The notes beneath the pieces are model-generated. The model was given only the letters and a program-made list of their open reading frames with translations, had not been told where the DNA came from and did no database searches. Positions 23,183 through 26,407 of a DNA stretch of 64,000 nt are shown here, piece by piece (the first letter of the stretch is position 1; each line of letters starts with the position of its first letter). The position numbers and the translations under genes are program-made. This DNA comes from a virus, in the IMG/VR virus record IMGVR_UViG_3300044712_000732, positions 317,776 through 381,775 of that record. One strand, written 5' to 3'.

Positions 23183-23617
23183 ATGGATATAAATAAAATA
23201 ATAGAAAAATCATATTCCGATAGTAAAAAAACAAGTTGTAATGCCCAAGCTGAATTGACCGAATTGGCAATAAACCACCACAATAAATTAATTAATATAA
23301 ATTCAAAATATGATAAAGAATATCAAAAATATTCCCAATACCAAATAGGTAAAGGATCATATTATTTCGAAAATATTGATGACAAATTTATCTATGTAAA
23401 ATATACAGATCATTGGCAATATGGTGGACATTGTGAAGAAACAATATTAATACCATTATTGGATTTAATATCTTTTGATTATTTAAAATATGAAATTAAT
23501 ATTAAGAATGAATCAATCATACAAATCCAAAATGATATAAATTCAAATAAGTCTAAAATAAAATTATTAAAATTAAAATTAGAAAAATTATCACAATTGC
23601 CATTAGAAGATCAATAA
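23183..23617 (+). CDS. Hypothetical protein, 144 aa (first gene of the radical SAM operon)
   Basis: Tight spacing with the downstream genes. Confidence 0.5.
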   Translation: MDINKIIEKSYSDSKKTSCNAQAELTELAINHHNKLININSKYDKEYQKYSQYQIGKGSYYFENIDDKFIYVKYTDHWQYGGHCEETILIPLLDLISFDYLKYEINIKNESIIQIQNDINSNKSKIKLLKLKLEKLSQLPLEDQ

Positions 23618-23630
23618 AAAACAATATAAT

Positions 23631-23888
23631 ATGACTTACAATAAAATTTTAAAAAATCTTAATTCTAAAACTATCACAATTGATAATGCTTTAGAAGAAC
23701 TCGCTAAATTAGGTTATTGTCCAAATGTACTTAATGATGATAATGGTCATTGGGCAGTAACTTTTGATGGATACCAAAATATACCAGAAGATGAAAATCC
23801 TTGTGATATAGAAACCCACTTTTCAGTTGATGCTGAATATTGGAAAAATACTATCTATGATGCACTAATTTATGCTTTAAATAAGTAG
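23631..23888 (+). CDS. Hypothetical small protein, 85 aa, two Cys
   Basis: Ends 6 nt before the radical SAM gene. Confidence 0.5.
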   Translation: MTYNKILKNLNSKTITIDNALEELAKLGYCPNVLNDDNGHWAVTFDGYQNIPEDENPCDIETHFSVDAEYWKNTIYDALIYALNK

Positions 23889-23894
23889 AAAAGT

Positions 23895-25033
23895 ATGGAA
23901 AAATTAAACAATGCAATTAAATTACCATTAATGGGGTTATATGGAACATTCAGTAATTTGAATATGGAATATGCTATCAGGATAACCGATTTTTGTAATT
24001 TAAACTGTGCATATTGCTATGCAAGAACAGAAAATCCCCAAAAGATGTCTCTTGAAACATTAACACGTGTTTTAAATGAAGTCGCAGCATCATGTGAAGG
24101 TCAAATAACAGTTGGACTGGTGGTGAACCAACCACAATGGGACATGATTTTTTTAAATCAATTGAAGATATTTTATCTACTTTAAACCCAAAAAGATTTG
24201 TAAATATATTACAATCTAACCTAATTCTATTAGATGATTGGTATGTTGATTTTTTGAAAAATAATAATTTCCAAGTTAGAACAAGCTTGGATTTACCACC
24301 AACAAACCATGACATTCTTCGTAAAGATGGTGATTTTGAGCGATCTATCAAAAGTATTGAAATGCTTAGAAAAGCTAATGTTCCAATTAATATTAATACT
24401 GTAGTAACAGAAAAAAATATTAATTCTGCCCAAGAAATTTTTAATTTCTTGAAAAAAATGGAAATTACTAGTTTTTCTGTTTCTAGATTAGTAGAACAAG
24501 GAAATGCTGTTAACAGGAACGATTTAATATTGTATGATAACGCTGCATTTGGTCGTTTTTTAGTGGAATTGTTTGATTTATGGATGGCTGATAATATAGA
24601 ACCAAAAATTCAAAGAATTACACCATTAGATAAACTTCTGAATGCTTGTAAAAGTGGAAAACGTGAAGAAAGTAAATGCTTTCATTGTCAAAGTCAGCTA
24701 TTTGCAATTGGACCAGATGGAAAAGTATTTCCATCGTGTAATAAATTCTTTGCTATTCCTGAAACTTGCCTTGGAAATGTTATGAATGATAGCATCCCAA
24801 AAATTTTACAATCCGATGAAAGAAATAAATTCCTTGCAACCACAAGTAGTGTGTCAGATAGAATTTGTTCAAAATGTGAATATGTAAATGTTTGTGAAGG
24901 TGGTTGTTATTATGTTGCTTATAATGCTCGCAAAAAAGGTGAAAATCTTCAAAGTCGTGAACATTTTTGTAAAGGATATTATTTGGTATTTGAAAGAATA
25001 TTTAACTATTTAAAATCAAAAAATGAATTGTAG
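23895..25033 (+). pseudogene. Radical SAM/SPASM-domain maturase (anSME-like), split into two ORFs by an apparent -1 frameshift near 24113-24120
   Basis: ORF 1 carries CNLNCAYCY (CxxxCxxC). The GGEPT motif that should follow is only readable in the frame of ORF 2 (TGGEPTTMGHDFF). The C-terminus carries the SPASM cysteines CSKCEYVNVCEGGC. Confidence 0.65.
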
Positions 25034-26036
25034 TATAAATGAACTAACTTGTGTGAAATTTCAAGTTGGATTTTGTTGTAATTTGGCTTGTAGTTTTTGT
25101 TTAATACAAGCAGAAGAAAAAACGTGTTCTTTAAATATGCACACTGTTGATAATGCTTTTAAAGATTTAGCATTACAAAAACAAATTAAAAGGGTCGTAA
25201 TTACTGGTGGTGAACCAACATTACCAATGTATATGCCAATAACGCTTGATATCATTAAAAAAGCAAAATCATTAGGTGCTGAATCAACAATTTATACCAA
25301 TGGAACATTGTTGAACAATGACAATTTGAAAGAATTACGTTCAGCCGGACTAACAGAAATTCGGTTGTCTGTTTACGAACCAATTAATTGGGAAAAAATT
25401 AATAATATTCTCGATGAAATGGAAAATAATGGTTTTTCAAGGTTTCTAAAAGTTACTGTAACACGTCAGACATATCCAAAACTAAAAGAAACTTTAGAAA
25501 AATTACCTAATTTAAAACCAACTAGATTCCAAATAAAACCATTTAATCAAACTGGAATAAAATATGTTGATGAAATTGAAGAAATGACACCCGATCAAGT
25601 TCTTGAAATGGCTAAAATAATGTTGGATTACAAAAGAAATGTGAATTTTAGAATAGATTTGTTACCACTTTGTTATGAATTTTTGGTGGAAGATGTACCA
25701 ACAGATAATATTTCTGTGTGTAATTGTGGAAAAGGTAAAGATGGTTACTTGGTTATTAATCCTAATGGTGATGTTTTTCCTTGTGGTGCTTATAGTGAAA
25801 ATATTGGTAATGTTAATGATCCAAATTATCTTCTAACTGAAGCTTGGAAAAAATCATTACTTCTAAAAACCATAAGAAATCTTTCAAAAGAAGTACCTGA
25901 TGAATGTAAAAATTGTCAACATCTAAAAAAATGTCAAATAAATGATTGCCATAGTACAACATTTAATTATTATGGAAATTTAAAACGTGGTAACCCACAA
26001 TGTCCAATTTTAGCAAAAGAAAGATTTAAATTATGA
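25023..26036 (+). CDS. Radical SAM/SPASM-domain maturase, 337 aa
   Basis: CCNLACSFC, VITGGEPTL, and C-terminal CNCGKG...FPCGAY...CKNCQHLKKCQINDC. Confidence 0.75.
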   Translation: MNCSINELTCVKFQVGFCCNLACSFCLIQAEEKTCSLNMHTVDNAFKDLALQKQIKRVVITGGEPTLPMYMPITLDIIKKAKSLGAESTIYTNGTLLNNDNLKELRSAGLTEIRLSVYEPINWEKINNILDEMENNGFSRFLKVTVTRQTYPKLKETLEKLPNLKPTRFQIKPFNQTGIKYVDEIEEMTPDQVLEMAKIMLDYKRNVNFRIDLLPLCYEFLVEDVPTDNISVCNCGKGKDGYLVINPNGDVFPCGAYSENIGNVNDPNYLLTEAWKKSLLLKTIRNLSKEVPDECKNCQHLKKCQINDCHSTTFNYYGNLKRGNPQCPILAKERFKL

Positions 26037-26407
26037 AATATTTCAGATTAATATCTAATGATCCAAATTATGAACCATTAGTTCAGTTTAAAATATATCC
26101 TGGTTATGAATTTCCATCCGAATGGGGAGATAATGTAGAATTTCATGCTGAAAGATATCCTATGGATTGGGAAGAATCAACAGAAGAAGAATATTTGAAA
26201 GAATATACTATCGAAGTAAATGCCAACGATATGAATAATGTTGTTCTAAAACGCATAAATGAATTAATTGATGAATATAAACTAGCTAAAATTAATTTGC
26301 CTAAATGTTCAGAATCATTTGAATATGATAATTTAGATAGACGAATTCATAACCTTAAATACATATTTCTTGAAATTGGTGTTTATCAATTTATCAATGA
26401 AACTTAA
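26033..26407 (+). CDS. Hypothetical acidic protein, 124 aa
   Basis: ATGA overlap with the radical SAM stop. Confidence 0.5.
   Translation: MKYFRLISNDPNYEPLVQFKIYPGYEFPSEWGDNVEFHAERYPMDWEESTEEEYLKEYTIEVNANDMNNVVLKRINELIDEYKLAKINLPKCSESFEYDNLDRRIHNLKYIFLEIGVYQFINET

Follow-up and report, generated by a model that had tools for sequence, protein, structure and literature searches.

Two adjacent SPASM-type radical SAM enzymes in a putative huge phage, the first gene interrupted by a 4-nt deletion

Relation to described SPASM systems

Radical S-adenosylmethionine (SAM) enzymes that carry a SPASM domain have been a productive ground for new chemistry on peptides and proteins, and to our knowledge nearly all characterised members were discovered through a substrate gene adjacent to them. 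DynA, DarE and DarW are single-polypeptide SPASM enzymes that lack a RiPP recognition element (RRE; RiPP, a ribosomally made peptide that is modified after translation) and introduce C-C, C-N or C-O cross-links into peptides; DynA adjoins its own precursor gene. SuiB and CteB carry an N-terminal RRE/PqqD-like domain, and the two-enzyme Hxs, Scm and Ahb/NirJ cassettes come with partners, namely HxsA/D, the Scm peptides and tetrapyrrole enzymes, respectively. The locus analysed here lies in a 64,000-nucleotide (nt) stretch of viral DNA, referred to as the window (positions 317,776 to 381,775 of IMG/VR record IMGVR_UViG_3300044712_000732), and encodes two overlapping SPASM-type enzymes, rSAM-1 and rSAM-2, the first of which is split by a 4-nt deletion. 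The reading that we prefer, with a probability of about 60%, is that of an accessory SPASM pair of a huge phage whose substrate is encoded elsewhere and whose rSAM-1 was recently inactivated by the deletion.

The program-made list of open reading frames (ORFs) places six ORFs head to tail on the + strand at 23183-26407, with lengths of 144, 85, 96, 298, 337 and 124 amino acids (aa), in a window with a GC content of about 25% throughout (Table 1). The third and fourth ORFs are the two parts of rSAM-1 (23895-25033): the 96-aa ORF (23895-24185, frame 0) and the 298-aa ORF (24137-25033, frame 2) overlap by 49 nt. Past the lesion, frame 0 continues to a stop codon at 24183-24185, and frame 2, which is open from 24098, reads SWTGGEPT. 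The GGE motif of rSAM-1 is not in frame with its CX3CX2C motif, GGEPT being readable in frame 2 only. The Radical_SAM match of the 5' part covers residues 28-66, and the two fragments score 26.2 and 27.4 bits against PF04055, just below the cut-off of 29.5, because the domain is split; intact homologues carry PF04055. The SPASM domain of rSAM-1 is matched by PF13186 (33.6 bits, cut-off 21.5) and TIGR04085 (51.2 bits, cut-off 27), and contains ten family-conserved Cys, including CX2CX5CX3C.

The rSAM-2 gene is in frame over its cluster motif CNLACSFC and TGGEPT (residues 61-66), and its product matches PF04055 (58.3 bits, cut-off 29.5), PF13186 (34.8 bits, cut-off 21.5) and TIGR04085 (42.4 bits, cut-off 27). 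Its SPASM tail has nine family-conserved Cys and the spacing CX2CX5CX4C. A first reading of the window from the letters alone, the sequence-only reading, had recognised two tandem SPASM-type radical SAM enzymes, and the Pfam Radical_SAM and SPASM matches together with the CxxxCxxC and GGEPT motifs in both bear this out; its count of seven to eight Cys in the SPASM tails was too low. Both enzymes are predicted to hold the radical SAM [4Fe-4S] site and enough conserved Cys for two auxiliary clusters. No RRE domain and no PF05402 match was found in either enzyme; since CX3CX2C begins at residue 12 in the rSAM-1 homologues and at residue 19 in rSAM-2, there is no room for one.

Table 1. Features of the gene block in the window, and other loci that hold the pair or one of its genes (MAG, metagenome-assembled genome).
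Feature or locus	Position	Strand	Description
144-aa ORF	23183-23617	+	First gene of the co-directional block; a phage ORFan outside the conserved module
85-aa ORF	23631-23888	+	Real gene, judged by its substitution pattern; small phage protein family independent of the rSAM pair
rSAM-1, 5' part	23895-24109	+	Frame 0; 23-aa N-terminal extension and radical SAM core with CNLNCAYC
4-nt deletion	24109/24110	+	Moves the reading of rSAM-1 out of frame 0 into frame 2; the nearest relative has CCTA here
rSAM-1, 3' part	24110-25033	+	Frame 2; SWTGGEPT, remaining TIM barrel and SPASM domain
rSAM-2	25023-26036	+	Intact 337-aa radical SAM/SPASM enzyme; 11-nt overlap with rSAM-1
124-aa ORF	26033-26407	+	Final gene of the block, overlapping rSAM-2 at an ATGA; not conserved as a partner
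Two tandem hairpins and U-run	26436-26510	+	Likely intrinsic terminator of the block
L010			Candidatus Falkowbacteria MAG; carries the pair
L011			Patescibacteria MAG; carries the pair
L003			Cellular; intact pair at 6001-8095; ribosomal protein L21, DnaB, RecR and tRNAs near the pair
L009			Archaeal; pair on a contig with archaeal 16S and 23S rRNA genes, 807-5668 (-)
L002, L005, L012, L017			Pair present; treated as cellular on thinner gene-content evidence
L008 (= L025; 3300033145_003233)			IMG/VR viral contig of 547,943 bp; huge phage
L015, L019, L021, L022			Phage-like; pair present; small-ORF families in common with L008
L020			Phage-like; rSAM-2 only; small-ORF families in common with L008

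The first enzyme probably belongs to the branch of SPASM proteins that comprises the anaerobic sulfatase maturases (anSME/AslB) and DynA. The sequence-only reading had called it anSME-like, and anSME is indeed the best match by NCBIfam model, by sequence against the Protein Data Bank (PDB) and by fold. TIGR03942 (anSME) gives 176.9 bits for the rSAM-1 fragment and 190.4 and 183.4 bits for the intact homologues P0002 and P0021, and anSMEcpe is the best solved structure for the family by sequence (E = 5e-26) and by fold (TM-score 0.80-0.83), followed by CteB and ChlB. The rSAM-1 family shares with anSME (anSMEcpe, PDB 4K36-4K39) the length class, the absence of an RRE, the CX3CX2C motif and a full SPASM domain with CX2CX5CX3C. 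Seven of the eight auxiliary-cluster Cys ligands listed for anSMEcpe (PMC5715301) align directly with Cys of the family; for Cys255 there is a candidate in the vicinity only (C242 or C231).

The family nevertheless differs from the anSMEs in several respects. Its members, about 28 clusters with 44-66% identity, make up a tight group of their own. The next matches are anSMEs at about 30% (about 24-30% in the comparison with anSME), and its TIGR03942 scores reach about half of the equivalog cut-off of 349.45 bits. An invariant Asn-Lys (N263-K264 in P0002; HMMER alignment to 4K37) occupies the position of anSMEcpe Asp277, which is said to be the catalytic base proposed in the 2013 structure paper. 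Unlike anSME, the family comes with a second SPASM enzyme in all or nearly all cases, and its hosts are Patescibacteria, an archaeon and huge phages. These differences make it very unlikely that rSAM-1 is a standard anaerobic sulfatase maturase with its sulfatase at another site of the genome, the housekeeping role that the sequence-only reading had named as a refutation, even though the Joint Genome Institute (JGI) annotates the 96-aa fragment as 'sulfatase maturation enzyme AslB' and anSME leads all three comparisons. The partner rSAM-2 has no counterpart in anSME systems, DynA models score equally well, and no sulfatase was matched by Pfam among the 38 ORFs of at least 150 aa in the 64-kb window.

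Against the DynA model (NF041298, cut-off 450), the rSAM-1 fragment scores 158 bits and the intact homologues score 188-196 bits, on a par with anSME; TIGR04083 ranks after both. These values lie far under the DynA cut-off, and no adjacent or conserved precursor was found, in contrast to DynA itself.

The second enzyme represents a rare, isolated family. Its best NCBIfam matches reach only 62-66 bits against a cut-off of 500, so no curated family is matched, and its own family comprises about 32 clusters at 40-70% identity, after which the score falls from 269 to 78 bits. The AlphaFold2 (AF2) model of rSAM-2 has a predicted local distance difference test (pLDDT) score of 94.9, and its nearest folds are SuiB, anSMEcpe, PqqE, TigE and SkfB, with TM-scores of about 0.7. 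By sequence profile and by fold, SuiB, PqqE and CteB (PDB 5V1Q, 6C8V and 5WGG) are the nearest structures, with a TIM barrel and a SPASM domain in common; identity is 17-19%, and rSAM-2 differs in lacking the N-terminal RRE/PqqD-like domain.

Two side-by-side SPASM-type genes inherited as a unit are likewise found in HxsB/HxsC, the GeoRSP pair, ScmE/ScmF, AhbC/AhbD and NirJ1/NirJ2. The curated models of such paired cassettes give 45-98 bits for the pair against cut-offs of 370-650: 71-98 bits for HxsB (cut-off 370), 45-53 for GeoRSP (400), 60-62 for ScmE (400), 58-72 for AhbD (500) and 62-66 for NirJ2 (500). The partner genes that define the Hxs, Scm and tetrapyrrole cassettes are not present. 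Because all curated cut-offs are missed widely and the defining partners are absent, the cassette does not appear to be an anSME, DynA, Hxs, GeoRSP, Scm, Ahb or NirJ system. Both proteins are best described as SPASM-maturase-like, and would represent two families undescribed in the libraries searched. Anti-phage viperin (pVip, PADLOC) was also considered and rejected, the matches being confined to the shared radical SAM core (25-56 bits over about 100 residues).

The lesion in rSAM-1 and decay at related loci

The nearest relative is L001, a 1,669-bp JGI contig with about 93% DNA identity. Where L001 reads AAATAACCCTAAGTTGG, the window reads AAATAAC----AGTTGG. In codons, L001 has GGT CAA ATA ACC CTA AGT TGG ACT GGT GGT GAA (QITLSWTGGE), and the window has GGT CAA ATA AC- --- AGT TGG. 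The deletion thus removes one codon and one base from the conserved strand I-T-[IL]-S-W-T-G-G-E-P; all 25 intact family members read [TV]-[IL]-[SN]-W-T-G-G-E-P at this site. In the AF2 model of the homologue P0002, the site corresponds to strand β-2, directly before the SAM-binding GGE motif. That the first maturase is out of frame had been seen in the sequence-only reading, and both the 96-aa/298-aa split and the L001 alignment confirm it; the proposed -1 shift at 24113-24120 (TVG-TGGEPT), on the other hand, gives way to a 4-nt deletion at 24109/24110.

The remainder of rSAM-1 is well preserved. Compared with L001, the ratio of nonsynonymous to synonymous substitutions (dN/dS) is 0.011 before the lesion and 0.067 after it, at a dS of about 0.5, and the 23-aa N-terminal extension, which the cellular homologues lack, shows synonymous changes only. 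The window copy keeps 64 of the 65 family-invariant residues, the single exception being the lesion itself; rSAM-2 retains 65/65 invariant and 27/27 near-invariant residues of its own family. The low dN/dS and the retained invariant residues suggest strong purifying selection on rSAM-1 in this phage lineage up to the very recent past. A real 4-nt deletion of very recent date accounts best for the frameshift and would have left a very fresh pseudogene; fresh pseudogenisation fits best among the three options of the sequence-only reading. As such, the frameshift would be a case of ordinary gene decay, in which an accessory gene of a phage is seen shortly after it was inactivated and sister genomes are at other stages of loss.

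Lesions of other kinds are found in the related loci. L031 (about 92% identical) retains the 85-aa gene; of rSAM-1 it has only the first ~18 codons (MEKPNIKLPIMGLYGTF), which run on into an unrelated 104-aa ORF. Positions 267-498 of L031 correspond to window positions 21470-21701; the homologue of the 163-aa ORF (21539-22030) is shortened there and leads straight into the 85-aa gene. Some 1.9 kb of the window, including four ORFs, is missing, and the region is highly mosaic. This structure explains the N-terminal extension of the window rSAM-1 as phage-derived, and suggests that the cassette is accessory in this phage lineage. L001 is not frameshifted at the deletion site of the window; its rSAM-1 has a TTA-to-TAA stop after ...VELFD, and the sequence after ITPLDK is unrelated. 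An in-frame TAA is found in rSAM-1 of L019 and in rSAM-2 of L022, and rSAM-1 is absent from L020. L016 carries rSAM-2 alone among housekeeping genes and is cellular, and in L023, of phage or cellular origin, rSAM-2 is reduced to its C-terminal two-thirds and lies against a truncated NAD synthase. The locus thus appears to be an accessory one that is being eroded in several sister genomes. By count, a lesion or loss affects five of eight phage-like loci and one of nine cellular loci (the exception being L016; one-sided hypergeometric p ~0.04), an excess that is suggestive only, as some of the phage-versus-cell calls are soft.

Programmed recoding or a functional split would offer a different account of the two ORFs, in which a -1 shift or a ribosomal hop restores the protein, or the 96-aa and 298-aa pieces assemble. 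The 49-nt ORF overlap and the strong past purifying selection beyond the lesion are compatible with it, and the single in-frame TAA in other conserved copies might hint at read-through. The details of the site make it highly improbable. No slippery heptamer of the form X_XXY_YYZ is present in frame 0 between 24098 and 24112, and the sole frame-0 heptamers in the ORF overlap, TTTTTTA (24149) and TTTAAAT (24152), are both downstream of GGEPT; slipping there would therefore not restore the motif, and would swap SWTGGEPTTMGHDF for unrelated residues. Programmed frameshifting, another option of the sequence-only reading, is not supported for this reason. Even an ideal frameshift would leave strand β-2 one residue shorter than in all 25 homologues, and the break lies inside the SAM-binding core in the P0002 model; the closest relative, moreover, is in frame at the deletion site. 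Reassignment of TAA was also considered and rejected, since rSAM-1 of L019 and rSAM-2 of L022 end in TAA at the expected position as well; in L001 the normal end of the gene falls outside the contig, which leaves that copy out of the comparison.

Several points weigh against a real and recent inactivation. Low dN/dS and near-perfect conservation are equally expected of an intact gene, so that the case for a pseudogene consists of a single lesion. The Logan assembly L007 (run SRR26046407) agrees with the window at all 20,897 positions, the deletion included; this run is maybe the same library as the JGI contig, so that the agreement is between assemblers and not necessarily between data sets, and an artefact at the read level or a minority variant is conceivable. 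L001 and L031 are short, low-coverage contigs whose odd ends could be assembly chimeras, and the phage-versus-cellular call for L015 and L019-L023 comes from shared small-ORF families and not from hallmark genes. A sequencing or assembly artefact, or a minority variant, in a real population with an intact rSAM-1 and a functional cassette would agree with the otherwise flawless gene, but we consider it unlikely. The four nucleotides are lost in a non-repetitive sequence and not by slippage in a homopolymer, two different assemblers agree completely over 20,897 bp, and the independent lesions or losses in L001, L031, L019, L022, L020 and L023 show decay of the module.

The pair as a two-gene module without a conserved neighbour

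Searches that covered 5.8 billion clusters returned about 30 clusters for each enzyme. L002, L003, L005, L009, L010, L011, L012, L015, L017 and L021 carry the two genes side by side or overlapping, often with overlapping stop and start codons, and the genes are neighbours wherever enough DNA is available. In L008 (9097-9461), two small Cys-containing ORFs (63 and 48 aa) split the intact genes apart. The longer of these ORFs has a homologue elsewhere in L019, so it looks like an inserted phage gene and not like a precursor. The homologues fall into two groups by identity to the window, A (58-67% for rSAM-1 and 61-70% for rSAM-2) and B (46-53% and 41-50%, respectively). The same two groups are found for both genes, which argues that rSAM-1 and rSAM-2 are inherited together.

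The pair was found in only two of 185,579 species-representative genomes, both of them Patescibacteria MAGs; the pair-bearing MAGs and IMG/VR contigs were identified by alignment-based scans. Complete MAGs with the pair include MFGM01, JBAZRV01 and GCA_030154545.1. The L009 contig probably derives from a DPANN-type archaeon. Its 23S gene contains a group I intron, and a further group I intron is located in L005 at 11996-12220. Close relatives of the operon were not found among deposited phages by blastn or tblastn, nor by single-protein scans of IMG/VR, and no description of such a SPASM pair in phages or Patescibacteria was found in the literature.

Neighbouring genes of all loci were clustered after masking of shadow ORFs inside the rSAM genes, a source of false families, and no family is common to the cellular and phage loci beyond the two enzymes. 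The neighbours in the window are common only to its own close relatives. Within 600 nt upstream and 500 nt downstream of the pair, no small peptide is shared among 15 loci, and a search for riboswitches upstream of the pair in seven loci gave only rRNA, tRNA and group I introns. The divergent ORFs of about 185 aa upstream of the pair in L002 and L005, with similar-sized ones in the window and L008, were rejected as a partner (13-23% identity, no conserved columns). Taken together, rSAM-1 and rSAM-2 appear to form a rare two-gene module, an ancient co-inherited unit with no conserved neighbour.

The three other ORFs of the block fit this picture. The 144-, 85- and 124-aa ORFs bear no resemblance to genes around the pair in L008 or at any other locus. 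No Pfam, NCBIfam, PHROG or PADLOC match was obtained for the 144-aa or the 124-aa ORF. The 144-aa ORF is absent from L001, which has other ORFs upstream of its 85-aa gene, and from L031. The 124-aa ORF has only 11 distant representatives among 1.84 billion proteins, each matching its N-terminal or its C-terminal half. The 85-aa ORF is 96% identical in L001 with a dN/dS of 0.061, which identifies it as a real gene; its family comprises six homologue clusters in total, and both of the contigs inspected are phage, one with a P22-type portal, with a radical SAM gene nearby in neither. This gene is also retained in L031, although the cassette is missing there. The flanking ORFs are thus probably unremarkable phage genes, placed in one transcription unit with the cassette, and not dedicated partners.

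The two hairpins that follow the last ORF, at 26436-26472 and 26475-26501, fold as RNA with -21.9 kcal/mol (z = -3.82; none of 200 shuffles folds as well), and the terminator scan matches 26475-26501 with a 10-bp stem, four GC pairs and a TTTTTT tail. The ORF list, the terminator scan and the RNA fold agree in essence with the ORF coordinates, motifs, overlaps and clean terminator given in the sequence-only reading. Its description of the flanking junctions as gaps of at most 6 nt or ATGA overlaps holds for rSAM-2 and the 124-aa ORF, but 13 nt separate the 144-aa ORF from the 85-aa ORF. Likewise, the five-gene operon stands as a layout and not as a functional unit, given that only the two enzymes are conserved together across relatives; none of the three small ORFs that it placed in the operon recurs next to the pair in homologous neighbourhoods.

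A separate observation concerns a 101-aa ORF at 27084-27389 (-), which lies some 700 nt from the rSAM block in convergent orientation and has seven Cys in its first 40 residues (MNDGCCTPGRPLVAGECCMGQTDGPTDCERESDCNESWC). It has no homologue among deposited phages and only a marginal PHROG match, and is a candidate substrate or metal-binding protein. A RiPP-type cluster, with this ORF or the 85-aa or 124-aa ORF as the substrate, would agree with its Cys-rich start, with the tight co-directional layout of the block that ends at a terminator, and with peptide maturases being the nearest folds and families. We regard such a cluster as improbable. None of the candidate ORFs accompanies the pair at any other locus, the 85-aa family occurs in phages without radical SAM genes, the Cys-rich ORF lacks a phage homologue, and the cellular loci are without a conserved small ORF beside the pair. 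Neither enzyme has an RRE, and CxxxCxxC of the homologues starts at residue 12-19.

Most likely, the substrate is a peptide or protein whose gene lies elsewhere. The fold matches of both enzymes are exclusively peptide- and protein-modifying SPASM enzymes; as the close structural relatives all act on peptides or proteins, the pair would take a polypeptide through two radical steps. In the accessory-pair reading that we prefer, the two enzymes would act in sequence on one peptide or protein, encoded in the phage or in the host. A 5'-deoxyadenosyl radical would abstract a hydrogen atom, with a cross-link or an oxidation to follow, as in the nearest structural relatives. The deletion in the GGE-carrying strand would inactivate rSAM-1 and break the two-step pathway, and the still intact rSAM-2 may either work alone, as in the rSAM-2-only genomes, or may not yet have decayed. 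What points to peptide or protein modification is family and fold resemblance only. Some SPASM and twitch enzymes use small molecules (BtrN, AhbD, NirJ), and the best, very weak NCBIfam matches of rSAM-2 are AhbD and NirJ2; a small-molecule substrate is conceivable.

A bolder version of the argument is possible, though doubtful. It takes the pair as an undescribed protein-modification system that requires no adjacent precursor and is exchanged between ultra-small symbionts (Patescibacteria and a DPANN-like archaeon) and huge phages; the phage module would be conditionally useful and repeatedly switched off by single mutations, and rSAM-2 alone would act on a host or virion protein. Such a system, if real, would mean a new substrate class for SPASM enzymes and would tie huge phages genetically to hosts of the Candidate Phyla Radiation (CPR) type.

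Under the preferred reading as well, the module is of more interest than the frameshift, being a substrate-orphan SPASM pair of Patescibacteria, an archaeon and huge phages. Unlike the SPASM systems that were found through their substrates, it is a rare and tightly conserved unit of two enzymes that has no substrate gene beside it, and its occurrence is limited to prokaryotes with reduced genomes and to huge phages. Such prokaryotes and phages have few biosynthetic pathways, and the modified target is therefore likely to matter for surface, symbiosis or infection. Intact homologues are on hand for expression, either P0002 with P0132 or P0021 with its partner.

Source genome and other features of the window

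The source contig is 501,337 bp long with 25% GC. Window proteins include an M3 peptidase, TnpB, RtcB, a helicase, a ThyA-like protein, SIR2, NADAR, Thg1, a sigma factor, a GGDEF protein, a pyrimidine-dimer glycosylase, an ADP-ribosyltransferase and many ORFans, along with PHROG and phage matches; a 346-aa protein has homologues in 343 deposited phages. Because of its size, its PHROG and phage matches and its typical gene content, the window is assigned to a huge phage.

An M3 oligopeptidase (PepF-like) is encoded at 7-1893 (+), 22 kb upstream of the pair, and another at 1-1555 of L002, 4.5 kb upstream of the pair there. The shared occurrence is probably a coincidence, although an enzyme of this kind could have a role in the processing of a modified peptide. 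A third radical SAM gene (32012-32998, +) encodes a 328-aa protein with no SPASM domain, a MoaA-like score of 92 bits (cut-off 284) and a weak match to the viperin core, and is followed by a small GGDEF-domain ORF (~33255-33683). The TnpB/IS605 OrfB-type protein at 11386-12627 (-) combines OrfB_IS605 with a Cas12f1-like TNB domain.

The RtcB ligase ORF (15470-16537, +; 355 aa) matches the 426-position Pfam model from position 150 to position 425 only, so that the N-terminal third is either missing or separately encoded upstream (14498-15473), and the gene may be split or rearranged. A 100-nt tRNA-like element at 45829-45928 (+) scores 47 bits with Rfam and is missed by ARAGORN, and possibly represents a tRNA that contains an intron or a long insert; it is located, along with a tRNA-Met (45141-45213), in an ORF-poor and slightly GC-richer stretch at 44050-47290. 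The thymidylate-synthase-family protein encoded at 47296-48309 (+) has 337 aa, of which 331 residues span the whole 266-position model with about 65 extra residues, and could be a variant of the deoxynucleoside monophosphate (dNMP) hydroxymethylase type for DNA modification.

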